A stretch of 32,000 nt of DNA from Acinetobacter wanghuae. GTDB lineage: Bacteria > Pseudomonadota > Gammaproteobacteria > Pseudomonadales > Moraxellaceae. Within the stretch, counting starts at the first letter, position 1. Each line of letters starts with the position of its first letter. The notes under the pieces were generated by a model. The model saw nothing but the letters and a program-made list of their open reading frames with translations. It made no database searches and was not told the DNA's origin. Shown here piece after piece: positions 16,373 through 31,900 of the stretch. Position numbers and translations under genes: made by a program. The DNA lies in NCBI RefSeq assembly GCF_009557235.1, contig NZ_CP045650.1:2130001-2162000 (forward strand), written 5' to 3'.

Positions 16373-18784
16373 TTATTTTTGATCTGGTAATGCGTAAGCA
16401 ACAACAGAGTCACCCATTTTGGTACCGAACGAACCGTGACCACCCGCCATGATAACAACGTATTGTTTACCATTTTGTTCATAAGTCATAGGAGTCGCTT
16501 GACCACCTGCAGGAAGACGACCTTTCCAAAGCTCATCACCGTTAGTTACGTTGATTGCACGGATATAGTTATCTTGAGTACCACCAACAAACATTACGTT
16601 ACCCGCAGTTGAGATAGAACCACCCAACATTGGAACGCCCATTTTGAACGGAGGTAATGGAATACCAGGCATACTGTCACGAATTGTACCAATACGACGT
16701 TTCCATACAGTTTCGTGAGTGTTTAAGTCAACACCAGCCACGAAGCCCCATGAAGGTTGTTTACAAGGTAAACCGAATGGAGATAAGAACGCACTAATTT
16801 CAACACCGTAAGGCACGCCATACATTGGTTGAACACCCGCTTCAGTACCCGCACCTTTCGCAGTTTGCGGACGGTTTGGATCTTGTGGGATTAATTTAGT
16901 TACAAATGGCAAGCCAATTGGGTTCATTACAGCAATTTGACGGTCTGGGTTTACAGACATACCGCCCCATTCGAACACACCTAAGTTACCTGGGAATACC
17001 AAAGTACCGTTTTCAGATGGTGGCGTATAAATGCCATCGTAGTTCAATTTATGGAATGATACACGACAGATCAATTGGTCAAACATAGTGGCACCCCACA
17101 TTTGTTTGTCAGTCAATTTCTCTTTTGGTGCCATATCAAAGTCAGAGAATGGTTGAGTTTTAGAATAGAACTCGCCCTTAGTCTGAGGACCACGTTTCAC
17201 AGATTGTGGAACTGGTTTTTCTGTAATAGGTACAATTGCTTTACCGTTACGACGGTCAAGAACGAAGGCATTACCTGTTTTAGTCAATACATAGATTGCT
17301 GGAACAGTTTTACCATCTTTGTCTTTGATATCAGCCAATGTAGGTTGTGACGGTACGTCCATATCCCACAAATCGTGATGTGTTGTTTGGAAGTTCCAAA
17401 CCAACTTACCAGTTGTCGCGTTTAACGCAAGCATAGAGTTTGCATAACGTTCATCTAACTCAGTACGGTGACCACCGAAGATATCCGGAGTACCTACACC
17501 CGTTGGAATATATACGATATCCAATTTAGCATCATATGCTAAAGGTGCCCAAGCATTTGGTGAGTTGTGTACGAATTTTTGACCAGGAGCAGGGATCGCA
17601 TTTGGATCTTCAGCACCAGTATCAAATACCCATAGAAGTTCACCAGTGTTTACGTCATAACCACGGATCACACCAGATGGTTCTTCAGTAGAATAGTTAT
17701 CGGTAGTAGAACCTGCGATAACAATTGTTGTACCAGTAATCACTGGAGGAGAAGTTGGGATATAGCCGCCTGGATAAGGGAATGGCATATCTTTTTGTAG
17801 ATCAACTTCACCGTTTTTACCGAAGTCAGAACATGGTTTACCTGTGTTTGGATTTACCGCAACAAGACGACCATCATTCACAGGAAGAATCACTTTCTGT
17901 GGACATTCAGCAGATACAGTTTTCTTAGCAGCAAGACTTGTTTCGAAACCAACAGTGTTGTTTGCATCAAAGTAAGACACACCACGACATGTTAAATGTT
18001 GATATGTGTTATCTGCTCTTAATACAGGATCGTAAGTCCATTTTGCTTTACCAGTCGCAGGATCAAGTGCAGTCAATTTTTGGTGGGTAGTACACATGTA
18101 CATGTTGTTACCCACTTTAATTGGTGTTACTTGGTTTGTAGTCTCACCTGAGTCGTTTTCAGTTTTGAATTCGCCAGTGTGATATTCCCAAGCCACTTGA
18201 AGATCTTTAACGTTTTCAGAGTTAATTTGTTTTAACGGTGAATAACGTAGACCAGACTGTGTACGACCGTATGCAGGCCAATCTTCATCAGCCACACCAG
18301 CAATTGCTTGATGTTTTTCAGGTTGTTGAGTTTTTAATTCGCCACGAATTTCTTGTGGGTCATTAAAGACAGCATAAATCATTACTAAAATCGTAATAAT
18401 TAATGAACCGCCTAAAGCCATTTTCGCAGTTTTAGTATTATCGAAACCACGAGTAACCGCAGGGATAAGTAACACTAAACCAAAGACACCTAGGATGTCT
18501 AAACGAGGCGCAAGCGCGAAGAAGTCAGAACCAACTTCCCATAGGCCCCACACCACTGTACCCAACATGAGAACAGCGTAGACCACCAGCGCGTTGCTTT
18601 TTTGCTTTTGTAATAATACTGCCGTAGCAATAAAGAGAATACCTGCAATGATGTAGTACCAAGACCCACCAAGCACTGCAAGATAAATCCCTCCAATCAG
18701 TAGTACCAAACCAAAAATAACGGCAACAACCGCTACAATCGTTTTAAGTACCGAACCTGATGATGAAGTATTCATATCGAACAC
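16373..18784 (-). CDS. gcd: Membrane-bound PQQ-dependent (quinoprotein) glucose dehydrogenase
   Basis: 803-aa ORF with five N-terminal TM helices followed by a PQQ beta-propeller. Long blocks match my memory of A. calcoaceticus GdhA, for example DWPAYGRTQ.G.RYSPLKQIN, SGETTNQVTPIK.GNNM, HHDLWDMDVPSQP and GQATPMTYE.NGKQYVVIMAGGHGSFGTKMGD. Confidence 0.95.
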   Translation of the reverse strand: MFDMNTSSSGSVLKTIVAVVAVIFGLVLLIGGIYLAVLGGSWYYIIAGILFIATAVLLQKQKSNALVVYAVLMLGTVVWGLWEVGSDFFALAPRLDILGVFGLVLLIPAVTRGFDNTKTAKMALGGSLIITILVMIYAVFNDPQEIRGELKTQQPEKHQAIAGVADEDWPAYGRTQSGLRYSPLKQINSENVKDLQVAWEYHTGEFKTENDSGETTNQVTPIKVGNNMYMCTTHQKLTALDPATGKAKWTYDPVLRADNTYQHLTCRGVSYFDANNTVGFETSLAAKKTVSAECPQKVILPVNDGRLVAVNPNTGKPCSDFGKNGEVDLQKDMPFPYPGGYIPTSPPVITGTTIVIAGSTTDNYSTEEPSGVIRGYDVNTGELLWVFDTGAEDPNAIPAPGQKFVHNSPNAWAPLAYDAKLDIVYIPTGVGTPDIFGGHRTELDERYANSMLALNATTGKLVWNFQTTHHDLWDMDVPSQPTLADIKDKDGKTVPAIYVLTKTGNAFVLDRRNGKAIVPITEKPVPQSVKRGPQTKGEFYSKTQPFSDFDMAPKEKLTDKQMWGATMFDQLICRVSFHKLNYDGIYTPPSENGTLVFPGNLGVFEWGGMSVNPDRQIAVMNPIGLPFVTKLIPQDPNRPQTAKGAGTEAGVQPMYGVPYGVEISAFLSPFGLPCKQPSWGFVAGVDLNTHETVWKRRIGTIRDSMPGIPLPPFKMGVPMLGGSISTAGNVMFVGGTQDNYIRAINVTNGDELWKGRLPAGGQATPMTYEQNGKQYVVIMAGGHGSFGTKMGDSVVAYALPDQK

Positions 18785-18938
18785 CTATTTTAGATTCTTT
18801 GAAAGCCCATGAGTGGGAGACTCATAGGCACCATATTGTTTTAGTTGTAAATACAGCAATACCTTCAGCATGCATCAATTATCAATGCATCAAAATGCTT
18901 AAAGATTCAATAGTGTATTTGCAACATGTAACTTTAAA

Positions 18939-20198
18939 TTAGAACGCTGTACTGAATTTAATGCCGCCAACCCAAGCATTTTCACCGTTTTTATACGCGC
19001 CAACATGACGAACATATTGAACGTTTGGACGGATCGTTAACCAGTTGGTTGCATGTAAACCGTAGTAAATTTCTGCATCGATTTCTTGGCTACGATTGCC
19101 AAGTACATCATCATTCATATTGATGCGTGCAACACCGACAGCGATTTCATCTTTAGGACGAGAATCCATTGCGCCTTTATAAACAAGACCCAAGTTTTGC
19201 ATGTCAGTTTTTTCGTTAGTTTTAGAGTCATGAACAGTTACGTTCACAAAACCTGTTAAACCACGAGAAGCATCACCTTTATGTGCAGTCAATTGTTGCT
19301 TCGCAACAACCCAACCACCTTGATGATGATCAGTTTGATTTTGAAGTTCTTGAGGTGTTACACCATCAAAGATTTTTGCATCAGCAGTACTGTAGTAGTA
19401 ACCAGCACGGTATTCACCAGGAAGTTTTTGTGCACCAAGTTTCGGTGTCCAAACCACTTCTGCAGGAATCATCGCGCCTTCAGAACCATCAGTGCTAAGG
19501 TTGAAACCTTTACCACGTGATAAGTTCTCACGGTTAATTTCATAAGCACCCACTTGCGCATAAACTTCAGGTGTGATGTTGTATTTCACACGTGCAGCCC
19601 ATTGTGATACTGGCCAGTTATACCATTCATCACCAACCCAGTTACCCACTTGTGAACCACAAAGTGCAAGGTTTTGGAAATCACAATCAAAGCTATTGAA
19701 GTCTTCACCTTCGCCGAAACGACCCACTTTAACGTCTAATTTTTGGTCTAAGAATTTTTTCTTAATCCAAAAATCAGTTAAACGCCAAGTTTGACCACGG
19801 CCCCACACTTCTTGAGCAGAACTCAAATGACCATTTAAAGCATCAGAAGTATTTGACAGGTTACGACCATTACGCTCAGTCACTGTAATCTGTGCTTCGG
19901 TATCTTTCCAACCTGCGATTTTTTCGAGGTCTAAATGTGCACCAAGTGCGATTTGGTCAGCGTATTCAGTACCATGGCTTGATGATTTTTTTGCATCAAG
20001 TAAAGTTGCCATTTCGCCTGTATAACCAAAGCTGAAATCAACACCTTTTTGTTGCAGCTCAGTACGTTGACCATTCCAGTCACCAAGCATCCATGGACTT
20101 TCTGCGCTAAATGCATCTGCAGCATGTGTAGCAGTATTTGACAATAGCAAAGCCGCCAAAGAGGTGTACACCGCTTTGGTTAATGGGGAGAGATTCAT
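18939..20198 (-). CDS. oprB: Carbohydrate-selective porin, OprB family
   Basis: 419-aa ORF with a signal peptide ...NTATHA/AD, beta-barrel-like sequence and a C-terminal ...IKFSTAF. It sits immediately upstream of gcd on the same strand, which is the classical glucose porin plus periplasmic oxidation pairing. Confidence 0.85.
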   Translation of the reverse strand: MNLSPLTKAVYTSLAALLLSNTATHAADAFSAESPWMLGDWNGQRTELQQKGVDFSFGYTGEMATLLDAKKSSSHGTEYADQIALGAHLDLEKIAGWKDTEAQITVTERNGRNLSNTSDALNGHLSSAQEVWGRGQTWRLTDFWIKKKFLDQKLDVKVGRFGEGEDFNSFDCDFQNLALCGSQVGNWVGDEWYNWPVSQWAARVKYNITPEVYAQVGAYEINRENLSRGKGFNLSTDGSEGAMIPAEVVWTPKLGAQKLPGEYRAGYYYSTADAKIFDGVTPQELQNQTDHHQGGWVVAKQQLTAHKGDASRGLTGFVNVTVHDSKTNEKTDMQNLGLVYKGAMDSRPKDEIAVGVARINMNDDVLGNRSQEIDAEIYYGLHATNWLTIRPNVQYVRHVGAYKNGENAWVGGIKFSTAF

Positions 20199-20726
20199 TA
20201 AAAGATTGCCTAAAACACATTCTAAGTATGCTTATAGTACACCTTTTTTTTCATTTTGATGTAAATAATAGATAATAAGTATTAAACATATGTGGTTTTC
20301 TTATAAGAAAGTTATCTAGTTTGTGGTTTTATGTAAATACACATCTCATTGATTCAGCTATTTTTAAAAGATAGCGACTCTCAAATCAATTATATAAAAT
20401 AAAGATAAATAATAAATTTAATATAAATTTTAATTATATAACCAATAAAAATTTATTATGAAATTCACCAAAAATCTTGAATTTAAAAAGATTGCTAGTT
20501 ACTTCTTTTTTCTTAACTTAGCTAAAAAAACAGCCTTGTAAGCTTATGCCCATATATCATTATTTAACATAAATATTAAGTATTACTTAATTTCAAAAAA
20601 TAAAATCTATTACATCAAGCTCCCTCTGAGTAGGATTTTTCTATTAAACTTCTGGTAAACTAAACACTGTGTCTTATTGAAGCGACTTGAGCTGCCAAAT
20701 ATTGCACCCTTAGACCTTTTATTCAT

Positions 20727-22271
20727 CTAAATAGACTCAAAGAGCTCTACCCATTTTTTTAGAATACTAGTACTAGAAAAGTTTTGACTCAGTAATTTGG
20801 CTTGTTCGCGAATATGACTCATATTCTGTTGATCATTCAAGTATTGAATAATTTTTTGAGCGTATTGCTCTACATCACCATCTGCAATCAAATAGCCATT
20901 TTGGTTATGTTGAATCATTTCACTTGGTCCATAACGAATATCGAATGAAGTCACAGGACAGCCATTAGCAAGCGCTTCCATGATCACCAAACAAAAGGAT
21001 TCACTCTGACTGGTTAATAACAACATTGAAGCTTCTTGGAGCACTTGATTTACATCCGAAACAAAGGGCTTTAAGAAAATATGATTTTCAAGTTTTTTGT
21101 CTTTAATCATTTTCTTTAAGTTCGAATACTCTAGTCCGAAACCAAATAAATCTAAGGTCGCTTGTGGATGATGCGTAACTACACGTTCAAAAATTGAAAT
21201 GAGTAAATCTAAGCGTTTTACTTTGTCATACCGTGCCAAAGAAACGAATTTATAGGGATCAAATGTAAGATAATAATCATCAGGTCTATGCGCCAATGCA
21301 TGTGGAATCACTTTATAGTTATTATGTGCACCATAAAGTTCTTCAATATCCTTTTTCTGTCGGTGAGTCAAAATGATCAAACCAGATAATTTATCGATAT
21401 GCCTAAAATATGGTGTGTAATTTTTATTCGGTGAACTTTTTATATCATTTGGATTATTATAGTGCGCTGCATGAATTGTACCAAACATGAAGAAATTCGA
21501 AGGAATATTATCCTTCAGTAAAAGATTAAAAACATTTATACGGTCGATCAAGAAAAGATATTTCTTCCGCGGGTCAATACATAATTTTCGCTGAATTGTA
21601 TATTGAGCCAATTCGATCAAACTCTGACAACTTTGGATGACCATCCCGTGTTCATCGAATAAATGTAGATTCTGAATCACACGTTTATCCTTGTTATAGC
21701 CGTAATGAACTTGGATAACGAGTTTGCCATTCACATCAAAAAAACTCTCAGCAATAACTTTTTTTTCATTCAAAATTTGATTTGAACATAGCTTTCCATA
21801 GTCATCGTAACGACTACGACTTACGACTTGTCCATTTTCAAAAAAGTTGATATGAATGAGCTTAGAGGATTTAAATACTTCATAGCGTTTGGTTCTACCC
21901 GATGTATCTTTATATATACGATTATTGATTGAATCAAATTCAACACCATTTTCAACACATGCGGCGATTGAACAAAAATAATCGGATGACTTCTTTTGGT
22001 AATATGAAAAAAGATTAATCAATTCGATATTTTTTGTATTTTTTAATAAACAATCGCTATATAATTTTTCAAAATTTGCACGTGTATTCAAATCGTGTTC
22101 AATGGTTAAAATTTTTATTTTGTAACCATAATTTGCGAGTAACTCTGCTCGACGCAACATTGAAACTACAATACCTGTCTTATTTTCTGATATTTTAGGG
22201 TAAAGCATAAATATTTCTTTATTGCTCATATTCATTATGTATCCATATAGATTTTTATCTAAAAACAACAC
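20727..22271 (-). CDS. GT4 glycosyltransferase of the GtfA/SdgA/SdgB type (O-glycosylation of Ser-rich or Ser-Asp repeat proteins)
   Basis: 514-aa ORF. The track start at 22271 is a GTG that overlaps the upstream stop by 1 nt; ATG starts at 22235 or 22229 are at least as likely.
- The C-terminal GT-B half has the E-x7-E block SESFCLVIMEALANGCPV followed by FDIRYGPSEMIQHNQNGYLI. I remember streptococcal GtfA as ...FDVRYGN..FI.DGKNGYL.
- The mid-region GTIHAAHYNN...NKNYTPYF...LIILTHRQKKDIE resembles GtfA VVVHAEHF...WNNFYDYQ...FIVATEAQK.
- The N-terminal ELINLFSYY resembles GtfA IIWLYNFF.
- The length of about 500 aa suggests an inserted domain between the Rossmann halves.
- There is no signal peptide. 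Confidence 0.75.
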   Translation of the reverse strand: MLFLDKNLYGYIMNMSNKEIFMLYPKISENKTGIVVSMLRRAELLANYGYKIKILTIEHDLNTRANFEKLYSDCLLKNTKNIELINLFSYYQKKSSDYFCSIAACVENGVEFDSINNRIYKDTSGRTKRYEVFKSSKLIHINFFENGQVVSRSRYDDYGKLCSNQILNEKKVIAESFFDVNGKLVIQVHYGYNKDKRVIQNLHLFDEHGMVIQSCQSLIELAQYTIQRKLCIDPRKKYLFLIDRINVFNLLLKDNIPSNFFMFGTIHAAHYNNPNDIKSSPNKNYTPYFRHIDKLSGLIILTHRQKKDIEELYGAHNNYKVIPHALAHRPDDYYLTFDPYKFVSLARYDKVKRLDLLISIFERVVTHHPQATLDLFGFGLEYSNLKKMIKDKKLENHIFLKPFVSDVNQVLQEASMLLLTSQSESFCLVIMEALANGCPVTSFDIRYGPSEMIQHNQNGYLIADGDVEQYAQKIIQYLNDQQNMSHIREQAKLLSQNFSSTSILKKWVELFESI

Positions 22272-23332
22272 TATATCTTGGCAATTTTTTTACGTAAGTT
22301 TTGCGGTAAAAAATTATTCTTATACGGTGGTTGAGCCTTAATTGCTAACCATTCATAATAATCGACCTGCGCACATGCAACGGAATATGCCATAAAGCCA
22401 ACACCAGGCCCAACATTAACCTCGTAAATATAGATATCTCCATCTTGTGTAATCCCAAGGTCCAGCCCAATTGAATCCAATCTCCACGCAAATTGTTTTT
22501 GGAAATTTTGATTAAAATCATCAAATAACTGTCTGATACCTAGATTAATTTTATCCACGCTACTTGGGTAGTATTGCTCTAAAAATAGCTGTTCTCGAGT
22601 GGTGATTAATGCCCCGAGCATACCATTTGTAATATCAATCTCTTTGTTTAGATTCACGTAAGGGAAAAATTTAATGAGCTGCCATTTGCCCTCTTTCCCA
22701 CGTGTAATATGCATTCTAAAAACAGTCGTCTGTCCTAAATGAGTTTCACTTTTTAGAAATGGACTAACTGTATAACCTCTTTTGAGATTTTTTTTTGTAA
22801 ATTCTTCTAATTCACTTAAATTATATTCATGCTGTTCTTGCATTTGTTTTACTATATATACATCAGCATTCTTTTTAATTGTAACAATTCCCTTACCCTG
22901 ATTACTTGCATCGGGTTTACAAATAATCTTGCTATATTTATTTAGGCTATTTTTAATCACTGAAAAATCATTAAGCTCTAAAACCTCGATTAAATACTTC
23001 CTCAACGGTTCAACCTTATTCATAATTTTATAAACCGTTTCCTTCGTACCAATCCGATTATTTGCAAAAGGAATAAGCTCTGCTAACTTTAAGTAGCTTT
23101 CCATATCCTCTTCTTTCACAGCCAAACGATTCTGCACAACATCTGGAAAATCAAAAATCTCTTCAACAACTTTATTATTCCTTAAAGTTTTGCCCTTAAT
23201 TCTCTTATTCTTAAAATCAATATTTTTTGCAATGAATACATAAGCTTCATGTTTTTTTTGCTGAGCAACTGAAATAAAAATTTTCTCTATATCGGTTATC
23301 ACCATATTCGGTTTTAATACACCAAAAATCAT
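22271..23332 (-). CDS. ATP-grasp enzyme, YheC/YheD-like family
   Basis: 353-aa ORF. Motifs are FDFPDVVQNRL (like the YheC/D ...PDV.Y.R), IICKPDASNQGKGI (the P-loop-like ATP-grasp strand), FRMHITRGKEGKWQL, and GLDLGITQDGDIYIYEVNVGPG (the ATP-grasp C-terminal Mg/ATP motif). It has a 4-bp overlap with the upstream gene. No signal peptide. Confidence 0.7.
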   Translation of the reverse strand: MIFGVLKPNMVITDIEKIFISVAQQKKHEAYVFIAKNIDFKNKRIKGKTLRNNKVVEEIFDFPDVVQNRLAVKEEDMESYLKLAELIPFANNRIGTKETVYKIMNKVEPLRKYLIEVLELNDFSVIKNSLNKYSKIICKPDASNQGKGIVTIKKNADVYIVKQMQEQHEYNLSELEEFTKKNLKRGYTVSPFLKSETHLGQTTVFRMHITRGKEGKWQLIKFFPYVNLNKEIDITNGMLGALITTREQLFLEQYYPSSVDKINLGIRQLFDDFNQNFQKQFAWRLDSIGLDLGITQDGDIYIYEVNVGPGVGFMAYSVACAQVDYYEWLAIKAQPPYKNNFLPQNLRKKIAKI

Positions 23333-24129
23333 TTTTCATCGCTCCATTTCTGAATTATCATTAAAGCATTTGTAATATCTTTATTTCTCAACTCTATATT
23401 TTCATTATAGAAGTCAACAATATAACCTTTACATTTTTCTAATTTGAAAAATATTAATATGTTAAAAATACCTGGAACGAGGGTTCCTGTTTTAACAGCC
23501 GTTATCTTATTTTTCAGCTCAGATTCATAGGTATTTTTCACCCGAATCTCATCACCACTTTTAGAATAAAATACATGTTCCGTGATGTTAGACATTGCTT
23601 GAAATCGAGCATCCGTTAATTTCGCATCAAGAATAATTTTTAAATCTGATAAAGTTGTATATTGCAGTCGATCAGCAAGTCCATGCTCATTGACAAGATG
23701 GGTATTTATCATTCCACGCGTGCTATTGTACTGATTGATATAGCTTATAAAGTTATAGTCTTGGACTTTTTCTAAATATTTCCTTAAGACCGCAGCCGAT
23801 GTATTGCTCGAAGCAATCATTAAATTTTTGATTAAGTCTTGAACACGGTACAGCTCACCTACTTTTAGGTTATTACCACTGCCTTTTCTTACATCATCTT
23901 CAGTGACTTCCAGATATTCATCCATATCAATATTACTATTGAGTAATCTATCGAGCAGAAAAATTTTAGCTGTTGAAGCAGGCACCACCTTTCGATCAAT
24001 ATTCTTTTGATACAAGGTAAAATTCCCACCCTTTTCATACATTCTAATGAGGATATGCTTGCCTGTAAGTGACTGATTCAAACTATCTGACAGTCTAGCC
24101 ATTTTTTCGATTAATGGAATATTCTGCAT
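23329..24129 (-). CDS. Peptidase S11 (D-alanyl-D-alanine carboxypeptidase / PBP5-like) catalytic domain protein, apparently cytoplasmic
   Basis: 266-aa ORF with all three active-site motifs at family-typical spacing: S52-T-A-K55 (PASTAKIF), S107-S-N109 (IASSNTSA) and K213-T-G215 (AVKTGTL). It also has VNEHGLADRLQYTTLSDL, which resembles the S11 block NxHGL...T.A.DL. The N-terminus MQNIPLIEKMARLSDSLNQSLTGKH has no hydrophobic signal sequence, and there is no C-terminal PBP5 beta-sandwich domain. Confidence 0.75.
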   Translation of the reverse strand: MQNIPLIEKMARLSDSLNQSLTGKHILIRMYEKGGNFTLYQKNIDRKVVPASTAKIFLLDRLLNSNIDMDEYLEVTEDDVRKGSGNNLKVGELYRVQDLIKNLMIASSNTSAAVLRKYLEKVQDYNFISYINQYNSTRGMINTHLVNEHGLADRLQYTTLSDLKIILDAKLTDARFQAMSNITEHVFYSKSGDEIRVKNTYESELKNKITAVKTGTLVPGIFNILIFFKLEKCKGYIVDFYNENIELRNKDITNALMIIQKWSDEK

Positions 24130-24140
24130 TTACTAAGCAC

Positions 24141-25793
24141 TCACTCAAAATAGTTTAAGTAAGCAATGTAGCCAGACAAATTATGCTCTTGATCATCAAT
24201 ACGTGTTCTAAAGCGATCATGGCGAACATAGAAGGCATTTAATATTTTTTCAGGTTTTGCCATATACATAGCAACTTCAGGATAGAAATAGCCTGCACTT
24301 CTTTGGAATTCGACGCGTTGCTCAATGAGCTTCTTAAGCTCTTCAAATTTTGATTTTTCATAGAGCTCATCAAATCCTTGTTCTCGCATACGAATCACCA
24401 TTTTGTATGCAGACATCATCATCTCTAAAAAAGTCGCATAAGCTGTTTTGCGCTCTGCAATAAACTTCATATGTTTTAAATAATTATTTAACCCAAATTC
24501 AAAATATTTTTCTTCTGGGCATATTTTTGTAAGTTCATTGGTGCAATAACTTAACCAATGATCATGATATTTATCGTATTTCTTCTCTATAAAATGCTCA
24601 AACATCAACTTTACAGTTTGAAGTAATGTGGCATCTTGATTAATCTGATACAGTCTTAGCAGTCCTAAAGCTGCTTCTCCATCATAGTAAACGATACGGA
24701 ACTGCTCTTTAGTTTCTAAACTCGGATAGTCGAGAACATGGGTGGTTTTACCCTGATCATCAACCATATACAAAATGCCTTCAGCCAACTTCTCTGCAAC
24801 AGATTGATATTGAGCGTCTTGCGTAATCTCTTGGTATTTAGCAAACATGAAGATGGCAGCTGCGTTTGAGCCAAGCTTGATTTCAGCTTCATCTTCACCA
24901 TCAATCATAAACCCACATGACTTTTCTTCTTTGTAGAAAACTTGAATGGCGTATTCGATTGCAAGTCGGATTTTTGTTAAATATTCTTCCTTATCATCAA
25001 CTTCTAGCGTTTCTAACAAAGCATAGACTGCCGTGCAATGGCGCACCGTATTATAGCTTTTTAATTCGCGATCATAAGCTGGGAAGTATCCATAAATAAA
25101 CCTCCCATCTTCTTGAAGTTCATTATGTAAAAACGTGGCATTTTCTAGAACTAAAGAACGTATATGTGTTTTTAAGTCCGAATCTAGCTCACGCACACCA
25201 TTAACTGGTCCTGTACTTTGCAAGTTCAGCATTTTCTCATCTTCATAAAATGCTGAAACTGTATCAAATAACCAAACGTGCTTAAGTTGATCTAATTCTA
25301 AATTTTTAGTGATTGTTGGATACTTAGAATGAAGTGCGCGATTTACATTGTCTTGATCCCAAAAGGTAGGCTGATTGTAGACAATGCCCCGGATTAACGC
25401 TTTTCCATATAGCTCTTGCTCTAAGAAGCAAATCTCAAACTTTGAATCGAAACTTACACCTTTCCTAAAATGATTATTATGCATTTGGGTGTTCAGTGTT
25501 TGTTTAACATCTTGCCATGACTTTTGCTTAATATTCACAGCGATATCAAACTTTAAATACTCAGGTAGACCTCTTTTTTTATCGTACATTTTGTCCAAAA
25601 AATTAAGCGTTCTATTTAATGCTGTTTTAGCATCGGGTGCATTCGTACTCCATACTTTACAACGTGTAGTCGGTTCACCATAAGAAATAAACACCACATA
25701 AGGTGCTTGTGCAATTGTGATGAGCTCTTGATTCAACCAATCTTTTAATTTTTCTTTAAAGCTTAAATATTGACTTTGAGTAGTGATTTTCAT
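24141..25793 (-). CDS. Hypothetical 550-aa protein, first gene of the AT-rich operon; family not recognised
   Basis: Long clean ORF, 11 nt upstream of the next gene, with no signal peptide or TM segment. The C-terminal two thirds is helix-rich, with spaced aromatic and small-residue blocks (DGRFIYGYFP...YNTVRHCTAVYAL; LGSNAAAIFMFAKY; YYDGEAALGLLRLY). These remind me of alpha/alpha-toroid enzymes, but that is only an impression. Confidence 0.7.
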   Translation of the reverse strand: MKITTQSQYLSFKEKLKDWLNQELITIAQAPYVVFISYGEPTTRCKVWSTNAPDAKTALNRTLNFLDKMYDKKRGLPEYLKFDIAVNIKQKSWQDVKQTLNTQMHNNHFRKGVSFDSKFEICFLEQELYGKALIRGIVYNQPTFWDQDNVNRALHSKYPTITKNLELDQLKHVWLFDTVSAFYEDEKMLNLQSTGPVNGVRELDSDLKTHIRSLVLENATFLHNELQEDGRFIYGYFPAYDRELKSYNTVRHCTAVYALLETLEVDDKEEYLTKIRLAIEYAIQVFYKEEKSCGFMIDGEDEAEIKLGSNAAAIFMFAKYQEITQDAQYQSVAEKLAEGILYMVDDQGKTTHVLDYPSLETKEQFRIVYYDGEAALGLLRLYQINQDATLLQTVKLMFEHFIEKKYDKYHDHWLSYCTNELTKICPEEKYFEFGLNNYLKHMKFIAERKTAYATFLEMMMSAYKMVIRMREQGFDELYEKSKFEELKKLIEQRVEFQRSAGYFYPEVAMYMAKPEKILNAFYVRHDRFRTRIDDQEHNLSGYIAYLNYFE

Positions 25794-25885
25794 GACCTGT
25801 ACATGTCTATTTTTTAAAGAATTTTGTAATTAAAAGCTAACATGACTTATTTTTTTTGGCGATGTTATTTTATGTATGTTTTGTT

Positions 25886-25913
25886 TATTTATGTATATCT
25901 ATATTCGAGTCAA
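25886..25913 (-). promoter_or_regulatory. Candidate sigma70 promoter for the four-gene operon
   Basis: On the minus strand, TTGACT (revcomp of agtcaa, 25908-25913) is followed by a 16-nt spacer and then TAAATA (revcomp of tattta, 25886-25891). This lies about 95 nt upstream of the ATG at 25793 and just downstream of the adhesin terminator. Confidence 0.25.
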
Positions 25914-25923
25914 AATAAAGCGC

Positions 25924-25950
25924 ATAAAAAAGAGGCCCCTAGGGGCCTCT
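25924..25950 (-). terminator. Rho-independent terminator of the giant adhesin gene
   Basis: Perfect 20-bp palindrome agaggcccctaggggcctct (25931-25950). On the minus strand it is followed by a T-run (complement of the aaaaa at 25926-25930). It lies 24 nt after the stop codon at 25974-25976. Confidence 0.85.
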
Positions 25951-25973
25951 CTCTTTTACTGTCAATTTACTAA

Positions 25974-28900
25974 TTAATAGAGCAGCTGATTGTTTTCAAG
26001 TAAATCAGCAAGACTTACCGTTGTATTGTTTAAAACAACCAAGTTAGTAGCAGCGCCACTTAGTAAGCCTGGGCCATCTAAATCTACTCTAACTACAGCG
26101 TTCGCACCGCTTTGAGTAACTGTTACGAAGTCTTCAATATTACCTGCATCAACACCGCTCTCTTTGAGTAAGCCTCTCAGATCTAGGGTATCGCCTTGTG
26201 CGAAATTAAAGTCTGTCCATACATCGTTACCCAATGTACTGGTGTTACCTCCACTACTAGTATTCGCCAACAGATCATAGATCACCGTATCTGCGCCTAG
26301 GCCTGTGGTAAAGGTATCATTAGCAGATGTACTGAATACAAACTGACCTTCTTTAGTCGCTGTAATGTCAATGCTGAGCGTTGAGCTTGATGTACTTCCA
26401 TCAATACCAGTGATGGTGTAAGCAATTACATCATCAGCAACATCAGCAACATTTACACCTACTTTATTGGTATAGCTATAGTCACCATTACCAGAAACGG
26501 TCAAGAAGCCTTGTGCTGTTTCAATGGTCTCTGTGTCATGTCTACCTAGAGTAACGCCACCAATGGTCAATTTAGTAAAGCCACCACTTGTGATGTCAGC
26601 CCCTGCACCATCATACAGGTTACCTGTTACTGTTGGATGTGATTTAGTCACTACATCCGCAATAACATAAGTACTACCAGTAATATCTACTTGCAGATTT
26701 GGAGCAGAAGAACTCAATGTCGTTGAACCCTTCTGAATATTATAGTCAAAACTATAATTACCTGCCTCTAAAGTAGATAGGTCAATATCTATTAAAGAAG
26801 CTCCAAGAGTTTTTTCTGAAGTAGTGAGTACCTTCGTATAATAACCCGTACTAGCATTATAGGTACCACCAAAATTAGCATTTTGTACAGCAACGTTATC
26901 TTTCAATAAACGATACGTAACCGTGATAGTTGCTGAACTAACTACTCCTGATGTCTCAAGGGTCAGCGTTGCATTACTTATCTCATTTCCTAATGTAAAT
27001 GATGTTGAACCACCGCCTGAAGCTTGCCCTGAAGTGGTTGCAGTACTAACACTATTAGCAAAGGTGAGATCAATAAAATCATAACGATCATTGGTCAAGA
27101 CTGCTACTGCATTCACATCAGGATTTGCTTCAACAACCGTCACTGTACCGTCTTGTGCAGGATTTGCATCATCCCAAACAATTTCAGTACCATCAGCATC
27201 AACACGAATATTAAGGACTGCAGTTTCAGTATGGTAGCCATCATCAATGGTATAGGTGAAGCTATCTACCTTGCCATAAGAAGATGATTGCCCATTACCT
27301 ACATAGCTAAATGAACCATCAGGTTTAATGGTGAGCGTACCATGTGCACCCTCAATTGTTGTTCCTGCTGCAGTGACAGATGCTGTCGTACCTGTTTCCG
27401 AAGCAATTTGGGTTAATACCGCAGTGCTACCATGTGCCTCAGCAACCCAATCATCAGCACCTATACCGTTATTGTCTAAAGATACATTGCCCTCTACACG
27501 ACCATAATCATGTAAAGTTGAATCTGTGATCGTGATATCAGTATTACTCAACACACCTACATTCAGTAAACTGGTTAACAAATCTGTAATAGGTCCTGGC
27601 TCAGGTGGAGCAAGCGCAAGAGTATATAGACCTGCTGGTATGTCATTAAACTGTACATTTATCGCAGAGATATTTGTGTTTAGACCTTGCGGAGTAAATG
27701 TTACTGCATCTTGAGCTATCGCTACAATTTCACCTGTAACAATATCAATGACATTTAGGTCAACTGTATAAGCCCCATCTAGTAAACCTACAAGAGAACC
27801 AAGATCTGTCAGACTACCATCCACTCTAACAGTAATATCTTGGAATGAATTCTCTTTAACTTCAAACGTCAGTGCAGTCGTTCTAGGTAATAATTTCACA
27901 TCAATGGTTTGTCCTAAAACAGAAACTGCTCCTAAGGCGAAAATATCCCCAGTTTTACCGTTTAGATTATCCTGCTCATCGAAAGCAACTGCTGTATATA
28001 GATCATCCACTGCTGCAATATCTTCTGGAATTACACCATCCGCACTTAGATCATTCTCATTCCAATCGATTGTGACACCATTTTTGGTGATACGAATGTT
28101 TAGATTAGCAGTATCTGTGTGCAGACCATCATCAATCGTATAAGTGAAGGTATCTACTTTACCAGTTACATCTCCCGACAATGGATCTAAGACATAAGTG
28201 TATGAACCATTACTAAAGATCGTCAAAGTACCATACTGACCTTGAATGGCGGTTCCTGACTCATTGACTGTTACTGGAGCTGTCACGACTTCTGATGTAA
28301 TTGCCACTAATGTTGCAGTCGCATCATGTAACTCTCCATTAATGTCATCTTGTCCAGAACCATTTTCACCATTTTCAAATACATTACCTTGCGTTTGAAT
28401 CTGATTATGTTGAAGAGATGCTGAAATCTCCATTTCCAGTCCAGATAACAAACCTGTACCAGCAACAAGACCAGTTAAAGCAGTTAATAAACCACCTACT
28501 TCAGTTGAAGAAAGTGCAACTGTGTAATTACCTGGAGGTAAACCTTCAAAATTAACTTGGTTGGCTGTAATTGTAGTTGTAACTAGACCTCCATTACCAA
28601 CAAGCTGAGGAGTTAAGGTTACTGCATCCTGTGCAACGGCCACAATATCACCAGTATCACGATCGATAATAAGAAGGTCGGCAAAAGTGCTAGGACTTTG
28701 ACCAAATAACAATGAGCTCAATAATCCATCGACTATTCCTGTTAAAGCCTCAATACTTACAGAACCGGTTTGGCCCGTCACATCAACAGTTATGTCCTGC
28801 GTTGAATTTGGGGCAACAGTAAAGTTAAGAGGATTATTTGTTGGCAACAAGCTCACATTAATTATTTCTGCAAGCGCATCAAGCTCTAAGAATGCCGATG

Positions 28901-31900
28901 AACTGCCTGTCATAAGTATATTGTTGACTACAGTAGCGTCACTTAAATTCACTGAATCTAGGTCGTCAACTGCATCGATGTCTGATTCCACATCAGAGTC
29001 AGAGTCGCTGTCAGAGTCACTATCGCTGTCAGAGTCAGAGTCGCTATCGGAATCAGAATCGCTGTCGCTGTCTGAGTCAGAGTCAGAATCGCTGTCGCTG
29101 TCAGAATCAGAGTCAGAATCGCTGTCTGAGTCAGAATCGCTGTCGCTGTCAGAATCAGAGTCGCTATCGCTGTCAGAATCAGAGTCGCTATCGGAATCAG
29201 AATCGCTGTCGCTGTCTGAGTCAGAGTCGGAATCACTGTCGCTATCAGAATCAGAGTCGGAATCGCTATCGCTGTCTGAGTCAGAATCGCTGTCGCTGTC
29301 TGAGTCGGAATCGCTATCAGAGTCAGAATCGCTGTCGCTGTCAGAGTCGGAATCGCTGTCGCTGTCAGAGTCGGAATCGCTGTCGCTGTCAGAGTCGCTG
29401 TCGCTATCAGAATCAGAATCGCTGTCAGAGTCAGAATCGCTGTCAGAGTCAGAATCGCTGTCAGAGTCAGAATCGCTGTCAGAGTCAGAATCGCTGTCGC
29501 TATCAGAGTCGGAGTCGCTATCGCTGTCAGAATCGGAGTCGCTATCAGAGTCAGAATCGCTATCGCTGTCAGAATCGGAGTCGCTATCAGAGTCGCTGTC
29601 AGAATCAGAGTCAGAATCGCTGTCGCTGTCAGAATCAGAGTCGGAGTCGCTATCAGAGTCAGAGTCGCTATCAGAATCGGAATCACTATCGCTGTCTGAG
29701 TCAGAATCGCTGTCACTATCAGAGTCAGAGTCGCTGTCAGAGTCGGAATCGCTATCGCTGTCAGAATCGGAGTCGCTATCAGAGTCGGAGTCGCTGTCAG
29801 AGTCAGAGTCGCTGTCAGAGTCAGAATCGCTGTCGCTATCAGAGTCGGAATCGCTGTCGCTATCAGAGTCAGAATCGCTATCGGAGTCAGAATCACTATC
29901 GCTGTCTGAGTCACTGTCGCTGTCTGAGTCGGAATCACTATCGCTGTCTGAGTCAGAGTCGCTGTCGCTATCGGAGTCAGAGTCGCTGTCAGAGTCAGAG
30001 TCGCTGTCAGAGTCAGAATCGCTGTCGCTATCAGAGTCGGAATCGCTGTCGCTATCAGAGTCAGAATCGCTATCGGAGTCAGAATCACTATCGCTGTCTG
30101 AGTCACTGTCGCTGTCTGAGTCGGAATCACTATCGCTGTCTGAGTCAGAGTCGCTGTCGCTATCGGAGTCAGAGTCGCTGTCAGAATCAGAATCACTGTC
30201 GCTATCAGAGTCGGAGTCGCTATCAGAATCGGAGTCGCTATCGCTATCAGAGTCGGAGTCGCTATCAGAATCAGAGTCGCTGTCGGAATCAGAGTCAGAA
30301 TCGCTGTCGCTATCAGAATCAGAGTCGCTATCGCTATCAGAGTCGGAATCGCTGTCGCTATCAGAATCGGAGTCGCTGTCAGAGTCAGAATCGCTGTCTG
30401 AGTCAGAGTCGCTGTCGCTATCAGAGTCAGAATCGCTGTCGCTATCAGAGTCAGAATCGCTGTCGCTATCAGAATCAGAGTCGCTGTCGCTATCAGAGTC
30501 AGAATCGCTGTCGCTATCAGAGTCGGAATCGCTGTCGCTATCAGAGTCAGAGTCGCTGTCGCTGTCAGAATCAGAGTCGCTGTCGCTATCAGAGTCGGAA
30601 TCGCTGTCGCTATCAGAATCGGAGTCGCTGTCAGAGTCAGAATCGCTGTCTGAGTCAGAGTCGCTGTCGCTATCAGAGTCAGAATCGCTGTCGCTATCAG
30701 AATCAGAGTCGCTGTCGCTATCAGAGTCGGAATCGCTGTCGCTATCAGAATCGGAGTCGCTGTCAGAATCGGAGTCGCTGTCAGAGTCAGAATCGCTGTC
30801 GCTATCAGAGTCGGAATCGCTATCGCTGTCAGAATCGGAGTCGCTGTCAGAGTCAGAATCACTGTCGCTGTCAGAGTCGGAATCGCTGTCACTATCAGAG
30901 TCGGAATCGCTATCAGAGTCGGAATCGCTATCAGAGTCAGAATCGCTGTCGCTATCAGAGTCAGAATCGCTGTCAGAGTCAGAATCGCTGTCGCTATCAG
31001 AGTCGGAATCGCTGTCGCTATCAGAGTCAGAGTCGCTGTCGCTGTCAGAATCAGAGTCGCTGTCGCTATCAGAGTCGGAATCGCTGTCGCTATCAGAATC
31101 GGAGTCGCTGTCAGAGTCAGAATCGCTGTCTGAGTCAGAGTCGCTGTCGCTATCAGAGTCAGAATCGCTGTCGCTATCAGAATCAGAGTCGCTGTCGCTA
31201 TCAGAGTCGGAATCGCTGTCGCTATCAGAATCGGAGTCGCTGTCAGAATCGGAGTCGCTGTCAGAATCGGAGTCGCTGTCAGAATCGGAGTCGCTGTCAG
31301 AGTCAGAATCACTGTCGCTGTCAGAGTCGGAATCGCTGTCACTATCAGAGTCGGAATCGCTATCAGAGTCGGAATCGCTATCAGAGTCAGAATCGCTGTC
31401 GCTATCAGAGTCAGAATCGCTGTCAGAGTCAGAATCGCTGTCAGAATCAGAGTCACTATCGCTGTCAGAATCGGAATCGCTATCGCTGTCAGAATCGGAA
31501 TCGCTATCGCTGTCAGAGTCGGAGTCGCTGTCGCTATCAGAATCAGAGTCGCTGTCAGAGTCGCTGTCAGAGTCAGAATCGCTGTCGCTATCAGAGTCGG
31601 AATCGCTGTCGCTATCAGAGTCAGAATCGCTATCGGAGTCAGAATCACTATCGCTGTCTGAGTCACTGTCGCTGTCTGAGTCGGAATCACTATCGCTGTC
31701 TGAGTCAGAGTCGCTGTCGCTATCGGAGTCAGAGTCGCTGTCAGAATCAGAATCACTGTCGCTATCAGAGTCGGAGTCGCTATCAGAATCAGAGTCGCTG
31801 TCTGAGTCAGAGTCGCTGTCGGAATCAGAGTCAGAATCACTGTCGCTGTCAGAGTCGGAGTCGCTGTCGCTATCGCTATCAGAATCAGAGTCACTGTCGC

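Follow-up and report, generated by a model that had tools for sequence, protein, structure and literature searches.

A DUF1975-insert glycosyltransferase linked to a giant serine-aspartate repeat adhesin in Acinetobacter suggests glycosylation before type I export

Gene Content of the Locus

The window examined herein is a 32-kb stretch of DNA from the gammaproteobacterium Acinetobacter wanghuae whose minus strand carries the 3′ portion of a giant adhesin gene and, after it, a cassette of four intact ORFs that are tightly spaced or overlapping (Table 1). The last gene of the cassette encodes the glycosyltransferase that is the subject of this report (hereafter "the enzyme"). Elsewhere in the window are nuo genes, a two-component system, and genes for ribonucleotide reductase, a TonB-dependent receptor, PQQ glucose dehydrogenase, and OprB. 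The G+C content is 31-35% across the 20-26 kb portion of the window versus about 40-45% in the flanks. A plasmid collection search returned only staphylococcal, Bacillus, and similar relatives of the enzyme and no Acinetobacter plasmid, and thus the cassette appears to be chromosomal.

Table 1. Features of the A. wanghuae locus, in window coordinates
Feature	Position	Strand	Basis or description
GT4 (GT-B) glycosyltransferase with DUF1975-like ten-strand beta insert, SdgA/SdgB/TarM/GtfA family	20727-22235	-	Pfam, NCBIfam, Foldseek
YheC/D-type ATP-grasp ligase, 353 aa, predicted cytoplasmic	22271-23332	-	Pfam ATPgrasp_YheCD, 1.1e-32
S11 (DD-peptidase/beta-lactamase fold) protein, 266 aa	23329-24129	-	Pfam Peptidase_S11, 1.3e-18
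U550, 550 aa, annotated without a function	24141-25793	-	N-terminal alpha/beta and C-terminal (alpha/alpha)6-barrel-like domains
Intrinsic terminator	25924-25950	-	8-bp GC-rich stem, 4-nt loop, TTTTTTA tail, directly after the adhesin stop
Nonrepeat C-terminal 1005 aa of adhesin, BapA/Bap/LapF-type	25974-28991	-	NCBIfam adhes_GNV_Cterm
T1SS C-terminal target domain, residues 923-1003 of the adhesin C-terminal region	~25983-26225	-	TIGR03661, 49.4 bits (cut-off 17.6)
Serine-aspartate repeat region, proposed acceptor	28992-32000	-	501 SD, continues beyond the window

At its maximal extent, the enzyme ORF (20727-22271) starts at a GTG codon at 22271 and encodes 514 aa, and this GTG has one base in common with the TAG stop codon of the preceding ATP-grasp gene. 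Public annotation and the consensus of homologues instead point to the ATG at 22235 as the likely start, which gives a 502-aa product that is 100% identical to a public A. wanghuae protein. The maximal ORF thus probably overextends the 5′ end by 36 nt. The stop of the ATP-grasp gene abuts the start region of the enzyme gene, and the ATP-grasp gene itself overlaps its upstream neighbor by 4 nt. A sequence check revealed neither a signal peptide nor a transmembrane segment in any of the four cassette proteins.

The adhesin gene ends about 3.7 kb upstream of the enzyme gene. It encodes 501 SD dipeptides in an unbroken row (28992-31997) that runs past the window end and is in frame with the 1005-aa C-terminal region. 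The repeat codons are mixed (AGC/TCT/TCC/AGT/TCA with GAC/GAT), which indicates that the repeats are maintained at the protein level. A 994-aa ORF at 28958-31942 was rejected because it reads the SD repeats out of frame. The C-terminal region scores 302 bits against the NCBIfam model NF045619 (adhes_GNV_Cterm), above the cut-off of 180. In its hundreds of SD dipeptides, its BapA-type C terminus, and its T1SS signal, the adhesin resembles the SD-repeat "beta-BAP" proteins described in Acinetobacter, such as ABSDF2314 and ABSDF785 (De Gregorio et al. 2015; PMC4647330). That paper mentions neither glycosylation nor a glycosyltransferase gene nearby, and "glycosyl" occurs in its text in one reference title only.

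The terminator (AGAGGCCCCTAGGGGCCTCT on the minus strand, then TTTTTTA) separates the adhesin gene from the four-gene cassette, suggesting that the two are linked but probably do not form one transcript. Genes for the type I secretion system (OMP, ABC, MFP) were found neither in the window, which excludes the 5′ side of the adhesin gene, nor within 10 kb in the fetched Acinetobacter loci.

An initial annotation of this locus had described a stand-alone enzyme next to its SD substrate. The SD repeats are real, but three genes intervene, and the enzyme is the last member of a four-gene cassette whose U550 product is fused to it in other lineages. The same annotation was correct that no GtfB-like paralogue or SecA2/SecY2 gene is present: neither these nor Asp genes occur within the 32-kb window or in the fetched Acinetobacter and Edwardsiella loci. 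A GtfA-type SRRP pathway was rejected on these grounds. The window also carries no tar/tag-type genes.

A Member of the DUF1975-Insert GT4 Family

The enzyme is a member of the GT4 family whose representatives carry a DUF1975 insert, together with SdgA/SdgB, TarM, and GtfA. The Pfam profile Glycos_transf_1 (PF00534) matches it with E = 1.2e-34, which speaks against an ORF that arose by chance. The NCBIfam models rank in the order SdgA (2e-59), SdgB (3.6e-54, with enzyme residues 27-510 aligned to model positions 9-492), and then GtfA (2.4e-34), and a PDB sequence search yields SdgB (2.7e-44), TarM (1.7e-38), and GtfA (1.6e-26). The sequence motifs ELINLF (position 83), HAAHY (267), and FDIRYGP (443) and the E-x7-E pair (E424/E432) are all present (514-aa numbering).

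Support for the insert domain is structural, since the Pfam model for DUF1975 (PF09318, Glyco_trans_A_1) gives no match at E <= 10 in the enzyme, its Edwardsiella homologue, or the homologue P0007. Among the sequences tried, only P0017, a 27% identical homologue, is matched (1.9e-11). The AlphaFold model of the enzyme (pLDDT 91.4) has ten beta strands inserted at residues ~98-203, and the SdgB structure paper describes the corresponding insert of SdgB as ten antiparallel strands. The model superposes over its full length on SdgB, TarM, and GtfA, with TM scores of 0.80-0.87. The top 11 Foldseek matches are all SdgB (E 1e-44 to 9e-42, TM 0.80-0.87, alignments of ~510-526 columns); TarM comes next (TM 0.82-0.85) and then GtfA (E ~1e-32).

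Conservation of functional residues was assessed against those given in the SdgB structure paper. The UDP-GlcNAc-binding residues of SdgB (H246, R329, K334, E406, and E414) are all kept as H267, R347, K352, E424, and E432 (514-aa numbering). The groove for the SD peptide in SdgB comprises R101, Y103, F108, Y111, Y124, N126, F128, R132, K134, and R137, six of which are kept (R101, Y103, Y111, N126, F128, and R137, corresponding to R118, Y120, Y130, N142, F144, and R152); the R101/R118 pairing was made by hand through the RIY motif, in a column that the MAFFT alignment gaps. Among the changed positions, Y124 is His and F108 is Thr, while the basic residues R132 and K134 are replaced by Gly and Val, which is a point against a role on an SD acceptor. 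SdgB and almost every SD-linked relative have Asn at position N126, where TarM has Asp. Net charge of the insert was dropped as a discriminator between SdgB and TarM because the values (enzyme +2, SdgB +2, TarM +7) are uninformative.

Judging from profile scores, the enzyme is not an orthologue or equivalog of SdgA/SdgB, although these are its best-scoring families. Its 201.5 and 184.2 bits fall below the cut-offs of 800 for NF047880/NF047881 (SdgA/SdgB), and its 118.9 bits against TIGR02918 (GtfA) below the cut-off of 574.6. Identity to SdgB is 22-24% and about the same to TarM, and the enzyme is approximately as distant from SdgB as TarM is; raw tree distances from the enzyme are 1.77 to SdgB and 2.06 to TarM. 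The Acinetobacter and Edwardsiella enzymes are monophyletic in 96 of 100 neighbor-joining bootstraps and form a clade of their own, whereas TarM clusters separately with other Firmicutes enzymes. Tests of an SdgB-versus-TarM bipartition are uninformative because both splits exist trivially in this unrooted tree, which was built by neighbor joining only and has no outgroup.

The initial annotation's reading of the enzyme is supported overall, with corrections. It had regarded the protein as more than a generic GT4, and SdgA and SdgB indeed lead the NCBIfam ranking, with SdgB also first in the PDB sequence and fold searches. The motifs that it quoted are all found, the beta domain that it predicted is visible in the model, and the superposition that it proposed on SdgB or GtfA extends over the full length with SdgB as the best match. 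Of the two Pfam domains that it named, Glycos_transf_1 was detected and DUF1975 was not, and the relationship that it expected to SdgA/SdgB/GtfA holds as that of best-scoring families but not of orthologues.

Recurrent Linkage to SD-Repeat Proteins

A scan of 596 Gb of genomes with the motif [FY]DI[RND]YGP[SEN][DE] gave 140 matches, none of them an A. wanghuae locus, and relatives of the enzyme are encoded at 133 of the 140. Hosts of the family include A. pittii, A. calcoaceticus, and some A. baumannii.

SD repeats adjoin the enzyme homologue in nine further Acinetobacter and Edwardsiella loci, and thus the linkage is not a one-locus coincidence. The Acinetobacter examples are from sp. Marseille-Q1620 (L003), A. 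beijerinckii (L004), sp. JW (L006), A. calcoaceticus (L007), A. pittii (L008), and A. baylyi (L086). The complete A. baylyi adhesin is arranged as an N-terminal module, 506 SD dipeptides, Ig repeats, and a T1SS C terminus. In Edwardsiella anguillarum (L001/L002), the homologue is linked to SDSDSD[A/S]EGGAG repeats, and its gene lies inside a T1SS operon, 14 nt after the OMP-ABC-MFP genes, without the other cassette genes. The DSD motif, which is the minimal SdgB acceptor according to the SdgB structure paper, is present in the SD repeats of all linked loci.

The pairing with an SD adhesin is seen in all evaluable proteobacterial loci, even as gene order, orientation, and accessory genes vary; the other loci are interrupted by contig ends or by masking. 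In one of these (L009), a masked run of 1358 codons lies precisely where the repeats are expected. Linkage extends to Gram-positive bacteria, where relatives accompany SD proteins of Levilactobacillus (L027, L061, L067, and L073) and an LPXTG Ser-rich protein of Kurthia.

Partner Genes of the Enzyme

U550 is a conserved partner of the enzyme and is fused to it in other lineages. It is encoded in all Acinetobacter loci and in the Levilactobacillus SD-protein loci, at least 11 natural fusions of U550 to a glycosyltransferase exist, and within Acinetobacter its identity is 60-66%, compared to 33-53% for the glycosyltransferase. Searches of Pfam, NCBIfam, and PDB sequences gave no match to U550. 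In Foldseek, its AlphaFold model (pLDDT 82) resembles GH76 and AGE epimerases weakly (E ~4e-5, TM 0.4-0.58).

The S11-like protein matches DD-carboxypeptidases in the PDB (4e-10) and has intact SxxK, SxN, and KTG motifs at residues 52, 107, and 213. Its maximum Kyte-Doolittle hydropathy is 1.55 (19-residue window), and because it lacks a signal peptide it is predicted to be cytoplasmic. Fusions of this protein to the enzyme occur in P0267 and P0280 (the latter from Pelistega ratti). The ATP-grasp protein, whose sequence contains no hydrophobic segment and for which a PDB sequence search gave no relative, is conserved beside the enzyme in seven loci (L003, L004, L005, L006, L007, L010, and L085).

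Proposed Function and Alternative Explanations

By analogy with its characterized relatives, the enzyme most likely O-glycosylates the SD repeats of the adhesin in the cytoplasm before type I export, a reading to which we assign a probability of roughly 70%. Its family, fold, intact catalytic apparatus, predicted cytoplasmic location, and linkage to SD adhesins are results of computation; what we infer is which acceptor and sugar are used, when the transfer takes place, and what it does for the cell.

We propose that the enzyme is a cytoplasmic retaining GT-B (GT4) glycosyltransferase whose beta insert and acceptor-side Rossmann domain would bind the unfolded, polyanionic (SD)n stretch of a BapA/LapF-type adhesin and move sugar from a UDP-sugar to the serine hydroxyls. 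All four characterized relatives use UDP-GlcNAc, which favors this donor, and the analogous product would be alpha-GlcNAc. Modification must be cytoplasmic because the adhesin exits directly through the type I secretion system. Export by this route begins with the C terminus, and the N-terminal module of LapA-type adhesins serves for retention. The glycosylated SD stalk would follow an N-terminal BapA_N-like module and, by analogy with staphylococcal SDR proteins, would hold the adhesive domains outward as a spacer that resists proteases. The co-transcribed U550, S11-like, and YheC/D ATP-grasp proteins most likely support this modification or elaborate on it.

The closest known counterpart is the SdgB/SdgA system of Staphylococcus aureus (PDB 7EC1, 7VFK-7VFO, and 7EC2), whose enzymes transfer O-GlcNAc to serine-aspartate repeats. 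The enzyme shares with it the GT4 GT-B fold and the ten-strand DUF1975-type insert; SdgB/SdgA is its best curated-family, PDB-sequence, and fold match, with all donor and catalytic residues and about half of the groove residues retained. Both are cytoplasmic, are encoded near SD-repeat protein genes, and lack a GtfB-type partner or accessory Sec system. However, the enzyme has only low identity to SdgB/SdgA, scores below the curated cut-offs, and belongs to a separate clade. It occurs in a Gram-negative host with a type I-secreted BapA/LapF-type adhesin rather than a Sec-exported, sortase-anchored MSCRAMM, and as a single glycosyltransferase rather than a pair. It is also accompanied by U550 and, variably, by ATP-grasp, cytoplasmic S11-like, and acetyltransferase-like proteins, none of which is known to us from the staphylococcal system.

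The streptococcal GtfA-GtfB pathway for export of the serine-rich repeat protein (SRRP) by accessory Sec (PDB 4PQG and 5E9T) involves the same enzyme family and insert domain. There, too, serines of a giant repetitive adhesin receive O-GlcNAc in the cytoplasm ahead of export, as proposed here. It differs in its weaker match to the enzyme by both profile score and fold, and in its use of GtfB and SecA2/SecY2/Asp, whereas export of the A. wanghuae adhesin would be type I. A similar logic, in which a large adhesin is modified by its own cytoplasmic enzyme before crossing the envelope, is seen in Gram-negatives with the HMW1C-type N-glycosyltransferases and the autotransporter heptosyltransferases Aah/TibC. 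Those enzymes belong to unrelated families (GT41 and the BAHT family, respectively), and their sugars, linkages, and secretion route (type V versus type I) are different.

One alternative, which we judge unlikely, is that the enzyme acts in the manner of TarM on a nonprotein anionic polymer or glycan (capsule, lipooligosaccharide, a polymer resembling teichoic acid, or a peptide polymer produced by the ATP-grasp protein) and lies near the adhesin gene only because the two share an island. TarM, the alpha-GlcNAc transferase for wall teichoic acid of S. aureus/S. epidermidis (PDB 4WAC, 4X6L, and 7QD7), whose similar identity to the enzyme counts against an SD acceptor since it acts on teichoic acid and not on protein, has the same fold and insert, aligns over the full sequence length, and has FDI[KR]YGPS in common with the enzyme. 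Its likeness to the enzyme nearly equals that of SdgB, its acceptor is likewise a long polyanion, and some public annotations of the family read "poly(glycerol-phosphate) alpha-glucosyltransferase." Certain relatives also lie in non-Ser-rich contexts. A U550-glycosyltransferase fusion (L087) sits in a polysaccharide-type locus among GT2, GT29, GT61, UDP-glucose dehydrogenase, and aminotransferase genes, where no Ser-rich protein is encoded close by; a Selenomonadales fusion (L012) includes the poly-gamma-glutamate capsule domain PGA_cap and adjoins a Mur-ligase/PGA_cap gene; and a homologue from a Burkholderiales MAG (L039) is next to genes that, judged by eye from their sequence, look to be of the capsule-export type.

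However, L039 and L087 fall outside the Acinetobacter/Edwardsiella clade. To our knowledge, Acinetobacter, as a Gram-negative, has no wall teichoic acid and lacks the poly-ribitol-phosphate acceptor of TarM, and the enzyme shares with SdgB the groove Asn that distinguishes both from TarM. The cassette carries no initiating transferase, flippase, polymerase, or exporter and is flanked by OprB, glucose dehydrogenase, and the adhesin. Moreover, the SD-adhesin linkage persists through varied gene arrangements, and in Edwardsiella the gene resides in a T1SS operon with no other cassette gene.

It also seems improbable that the enzyme modifies the adhesin other than as the primary Ser O-glycosyltransferase, either by acting on the Ser/Thr-rich Ig-like or linker regions or by adding a second sugar, or a sugar on a residue first installed by U550, the ATP-grasp protein, or the S11-like protein. 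SdgA is a second-step enzyme that follows SdgB, and NCBIfam places it slightly above SdgB for the A. wanghuae protein. U550 is better conserved than the glycosyltransferase and fused to it elsewhere, and the Levilactobacillus SD loci combine three paralogous glycosyltransferases with U550. In contrast, U550 has no recognizable glycosyltransferase fold, and Edwardsiella pairs the enzyme with an SD adhesin in the absence of the other cassette genes, indicating that the enzyme alone appears sufficient there. The fetched part of the A. indicus adhesin has Ig-type repeats and no SD run, but this sequence is truncated toward the N terminus, the side that carries the SD run in A. baylyi.

Finally, we give little credence to the idea that the cassette is a decaying, horizontally acquired remnant with an inactive or unexpressed enzyme and an unmodified adhesin: although the low G+C content, the IS elements that break up the homologous A. 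indicus locus, and the terminator between adhesin and cassette could be read in this way, the four ORFs are intact and closely packed, the catalytic residues of the enzyme and the three active-site motifs of the S11-like protein are all kept, and retention of the cassette in many Acinetobacter species at 33-66% identity points to long-term purifying selection.

Implications for Adhesin Glycosylation

Taken as SD glycosylation, these findings suggest that, in some Gram-negative bacteria, sugar is added to a type I-secreted adhesin while it is still in the cell and awaiting export. We know of SD-repeat glycosylation established so far only for Sec-exported, sortase-anchored staphylococcal adhesins. 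A literature search, whose scope excluded most subscription journals, returned no paper linking an SdgB-, TarM-, or GtfA-type enzyme to Gram-negative bacteria or to type I-secreted adhesins. If the proposal is correct, then cytoplasmic O-glycosylation of Gram-negative adhesins would be extended to a further enzyme family and to a further secretion route. The proposal also raises a testable question, namely, whether hundreds of sugars on one chain are compatible with passage through a type I channel.

A broader possibility, which we offer tentatively and with less than even confidence, is that Acinetobacter (including the calcoaceticus-baumannii complex) and Edwardsiella possess a Firmicutes-derived cytoplasmic pathway that glycosylates SD serines and to which, in some species, ATP-grasp and DD-peptidase-fold enzymes add further groups. 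It would then follow that type I secretion can handle a polypeptide with heavy glycosylation, and U550 would be a new obligatory partner of DUF1975 glycosyltransferases and a functional counterpart of GtfB. Current annotations label the cassette genes only as "glycosyltransferase," "hypothetical," or TagE-like. Conserved linkage and natural fusions tie to the proposed pathway three uncharacterized proteins (a large family at present misnamed "poly alpha-glucosyltransferase," the cytoplasmic S11-fold protein, and the YheC/D ATP-grasp), making them candidates for new protein-tailoring chemistry.

In staphylococci, modification of SD repeats is described as shielding adhesins from neutrophil cathepsin G and as creating an immunodominant epitope to which as much as 1% of human IgG binds (PMC3794999). 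If Acinetobacter displays the same GlcNAc-SD epitope, then the abundant human antibodies to staphylococcal SDR-GlcNAc, and the therapeutic antibodies derived from them, might cross-react with these bacteria.

Family, Fold, and Residues of the Glycosyltransferase

In A. wanghuae, a gammaproteobacterium, a minus-strand ORF encodes the 514-aa protein proposed in the initial annotation, and all the motifs quoted there are found in it (ELINLF at residue 83, HAAHY at 267, FDIRYGP at 443, and E424/E432 as the E-x7-E pair). The GTG at 22271 overlaps the stop of the upstream gene by one base. The public A. wanghuae protein (100% identical, 502 aa) starts at the ATG at 22235, and the consensus start among homologues agrees with this choice.

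The NCBIfam SdgA and SdgB families, which comprise O-glycosyltransferases of SD-repeat adhesins, are the two best matches to the enzyme (2e-59 and 3.6e-54, the latter with an end-to-end alignment), and GtfA is third (2.4e-34), all with scores far under the curated cut-offs. Likewise, a PDB sequence search ranks SdgB (2.7e-44) ahead of TarM (1.7e-38) and GtfA (1.6e-26). Pfam recognizes a generic GT4 C-terminal domain alone (1e-34), and the DUF1975 match anticipated in the initial annotation did not appear even at E ≤ 10. The inserted beta-domain that had also been predicted is seen in an AlphaFold model (23 homologues as input; pLDDT 91.4) as ten strands (residues ~98-203) within the N-terminal Rossmann domain, the same architecture as that reported for DUF1975 in SdgB and SdgA (PMC8561734). 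When this model was compared with the PDB by Foldseek, the top eleven matches were SdgB chains (TM 0.80-0.87 over the whole chain), followed by TarM (TM 0.81-0.85) and then GtfA.

SdgB complex structures served as the guide for mapping residues. All the residues that hold UDP-GlcNAc in SdgB (H246, R329, K334, E406, and E414) are kept. Within the SD-peptide groove of the SdgB insert domain, six of ten residues are kept, including R101, whose match was counted by hand via the RIY motif at a column where MAFFT places a gap. The basic groove residues R132 and K134 of SdgB are both lost. Groove position N126 is Asn in the enzyme, in SdgB, and in nearly all SD-linked relatives examined, and Asp in TarM.

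A neighbor-joining tree of 81 family members places the Acinetobacter and Edwardsiella enzymes in a clade of their own (96/100 bootstraps); outside it, SdgB lies at the shortest distance (1.77 versus 2.06 for TarM). Thus, on the computed profile, PDB, fold, residue, and tree results, the enzyme belongs to the DUF1975-insert GT4 family, within which it is closest in likeness to SdgA/SdgB. We rejected its assignment as an SdgA/SdgB orthologue, given its own clade, the scores under cut-off, and an identity to SdgB (22-24%) about the same as that to TarM; it represents a separate subfamily.

The SD-Repeat Adhesin and the Four-Gene Cassette

The SD-repeat neighbor claimed in the initial annotation is present, and its SD run continues in frame into a 1005-aa nonrepeat C-terminus. 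Because five Ser and two Asp codons are mixed within the run, the repeats are maintained at the protein level. The C-terminal 1005 aa score above the curated cut-offs of two models, one for the C-terminal region of BapA/Bap/LapF large adhesins and one for the C-terminal target domain of type I secretion. The protein belongs to the “beta-BAP” group of SD-repeat adhesins that De Gregorio et al. described in Acinetobacter (PMC4647330). That paper also names KPN_00994 and ST548_p6177, two SD-rich adhesins whose genes are flanked by lap genes. A 994-aa ORF at 28958-31942 (minus strand; “TLIATAIPT...”) is a second open frame of the same repeats rather than a separate gene. In the public record for Acinetobacter sp. 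Marseille-Q1620 (L003, 70-3372), the gene caller followed an incorrect frame of this kind, which left the adhesin split. Because this second frame is open and has been miscalled, database entries for SD adhesins are probably often fragmented or mis-annotated.

Features of the window
Feature	Position	Strand	Remarks
Adhesin, SD repeat	28992-31997	-	501 unbroken SD dipeptides, read from window end
Adhesin, end of C-terminus	25974	-
Intrinsic terminator	25924-25950	-	directly 3′ of adhesin stop; AGAGGCCCCTAGGGGCCTCT then TTTTTTA
U550, 550-aa protein	24141-25793	-	no Pfam, NCBIfam, or PDB sequence match
S11 DD-peptidase/beta-lactamase-fold protein	23329-24129	-	SxxK (52), SxN (107), KTG (213) intact
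YheC/D-type ATP-grasp ligase	22271-23332	-	translationally coupled to neighbors
Glycosyltransferase	20727-22271	-	fourth, after ATP-grasp, in tightly packed cassette
AT-rich spacer, 530-nt	20199-20726		downstream of glycosyltransferase; within low-G+C stretch
nuoA-F; histidine kinase and response regulator pair; ribonucleotide reductase large and small subunits	within 1-20198		ordinary chromosome
TonB-dependent receptor; membrane PQQ glucose dehydrogenase; OprB porin	within 1-20198		ordinary chromosome

The terminator after the adhesin is of perfect, textbook form and lies on the minus strand (the scan output gave the plus strand only), and about 130 nt of AT-rich DNA separates it from the cassette. 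Although the adhesin gene is indeed nearby, the initial description of the enzyme as “next to” it and “stand-alone” is inaccurate, because the genes for U550, the S11-like protein, and the ATP-grasp ligase intervene. No signal peptide or membrane segment is present in any of the four cassette proteins. S11 enzymes are normally active outside the membrane, and the S11-like protein, which has neither feature, is predicted to be a cytoplasmic member of the family. The PDB holds no solved relative of the ATP-grasp protein detectable by sequence. We speculate that these two proteins might add amino acids onto the sugar or onto Asp/Ser side chains.

U550 is modeled as an N-terminal alpha/beta domain followed by an (alpha/alpha)6-like barrel. 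Homologues of U550 number more than 779; of the 120 best-scoring ones listed, those with a name come almost entirely from Acinetobacter. NCBI names for these proteins include “poly alpha-glucosyltransferase,” “GH88,” and “AGE family epimerase,” the first of which probably spread from fusions in which U550 sits N-terminal to a glycosyltransferase. Of the 147 representatives nearest to the enzyme at the 50%-identity level, at least 11 are such natural fusions, all metagenomic protein clusters, and two more (P0280 of Pelistega ratti and P0267) fuse a glycosyltransferase to an S11-like domain. Because they are fused elsewhere, U550 and the S11-like protein are each predicted to act together with the glycosyltransferase.

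Linkage and Origin

An SD-repeat adhesin adjoins the enzyme homologue in Acinetobacter sp. Marseille-Q1620, A. beijerinckii, Acinetobacter sp. JW, A. calcoaceticus, and A. pittii. The same is true of A. baylyi, whose complete adhesin consists of an N-terminal module, 506 SD dipeptides, Ig-like repeats, and a T1SS C-terminus. Loci L005 and L010 (contig ends), L085 of A. indicus (adhesin N-terminal part outside the fetched stretch), and L009 of A. pittii ATCC 19004 (masked) were left out of this count. In L009 (~16500-20600), ~1358 masked codons (N) lie exactly between the adhesin N-terminal module and C-terminal region; presumably they correspond to the SD repeat, which the collection would have masked for its low complexity. 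At the Edwardsiella anguillarum locus, the adhesin carries about 35 SDSDSD[A/S]EGGAG repeats, the enzyme gene starts 14 nt after the genes for the outer-membrane, ABC, and membrane-fusion components of a T1SS, and none of the other cassette genes is present. Type I secretion genes are absent from window positions 1-20198. Across these evaluable loci the pairing of enzyme and SD adhesin is constant, while gene order and orientation vary. The enzyme might have a second-step role that follows another enzyme of the cassette, but the Edwardsiella arrangement argues that it can act alone.

U550 is present in every Acinetobacter locus, and the cassette surroundings differ among species. In A. beijerinckii (L004), the cassette also includes a hexapeptide-repeat acyltransferase (7019-7744) and two uncharacterized proteins of 365 and 328 aa (3389-4486 and 11073-12059); the layouts in Acinetobacter sp. 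JW and A. calcoaceticus look the same, as judged by coordinate spacing only. An uncharacterized 428-aa protein follows the glycosyltransferase in A. baylyi (L086, 13215-14501). In A. indicus, IS elements (DDE_Tnp_1 and IS21-type IstA/IstB; L085, 6186-9940) lie between the adhesin gene and the cassette, whose ATP-grasp gene is called at 213 aa and looks truncated.

A U550 homologue (31-32% identity) is also found in Levilactobacillus, at loci with genes for SD-repeat proteins and for three paralogous glycosyltransferases. Four Levilactobacillus/Lactobacillus loci (L061, L067, L073, and L027) combine SD-repeat surface proteins, a U550 homologue, and three tandem DUF1975-type glycosyltransferases. 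Such loci look like a nonstaphylococcal system for SD glycosylation, of which we found no description in the literature.

Among named records, the close clade of the enzyme is confined to Acinetobacter, and one of its clusters has 218 members, which come from A. pittii, A. calcoaceticus, and A. baumannii; the closest named relatives beyond the clade belong to the Firmicutes. The cassette and spacer (~20200-26000) have a G+C content of 31-35%, compared with about 40-45% in the flanks, which carry housekeeping genes. This low G+C is consistent with foreign origin and, together with the two phylogenetic observations, points to a putative old transfer from Gram-positive bacteria.

Proposed Mechanism

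The best-supported reading is that the SD serines of the adhesin are glycosylated in the cytoplasm before type I export. Computation establishes the family, fold, catalytic residues, location, and linkage of the enzyme; we infer the acceptor, sugar, timing, and role as follows. The enzyme would bind the unfolded polyanionic SD segment in the cytoplasm, the sole compartment where a soluble UDP-sugar-dependent GT-B enzyme could meet a type I substrate. It would then move a sugar onto the SD serines, likely alpha-GlcNAc from UDP-GlcNAc, since SdgB, SdgA, TarM, and GtfA all use this donor. Modification would precede exit of the adhesin through its type I secretion system. By analogy with the staphylococcal case (PMC3794999), the sugar coat would guard the stalk, once exposed, against proteases.

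One might instead propose a nonprotein acceptor, given that the enzyme family includes TarM, a teichoic-acid enzyme, and that one U550-glycosyltransferase fusion sits in a polysaccharide-type locus (L087). Another fusion, from a Selenomonadales MAG (L012, 1225-6045), is a 1606-aa protein that joins U550, a PGA_cap (poly-gamma-glutamate capsule) domain, and a glycosyltransferase; its neighbors encode a PGA_cap and Mur-ligase protein, another large GT4 protein, and an ATP-grasp protein. Instead of a protein, its acceptor may be an anionic peptide polymer. L087 and L012 indicate that the family as a whole is not confined to Ser-rich proteins. However, for the Acinetobacter/Edwardsiella clade a nonprotein acceptor is unlikely, because polymer-assembly genes are absent and the evaluable loci all keep the link to the adhesin.

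The report on Acinetobacter SD-repeat adhesins (PMC4647330) does not mention a linked glycosyltransferase. Full-text searches, whose incomplete coverage makes this less than proof, turned up no publication in which an SdgB/TarM/GtfA-type enzyme acts with adhesins that are Gram-negative or type I-secreted. The genes carry uninformative or incorrect names in databases (“glycosyltransferase,” “poly(glycerol-phosphate) alpha-glucosyltransferase,” or “poly alpha-glucosyltransferase”). Glycosylation of the SD serines before export implies that a type I channel would pass a heavily glycosylated chain. The chemistry of this putative system is known; what is new is the type of envelope, the route of secretion, and the set of accessory genes.
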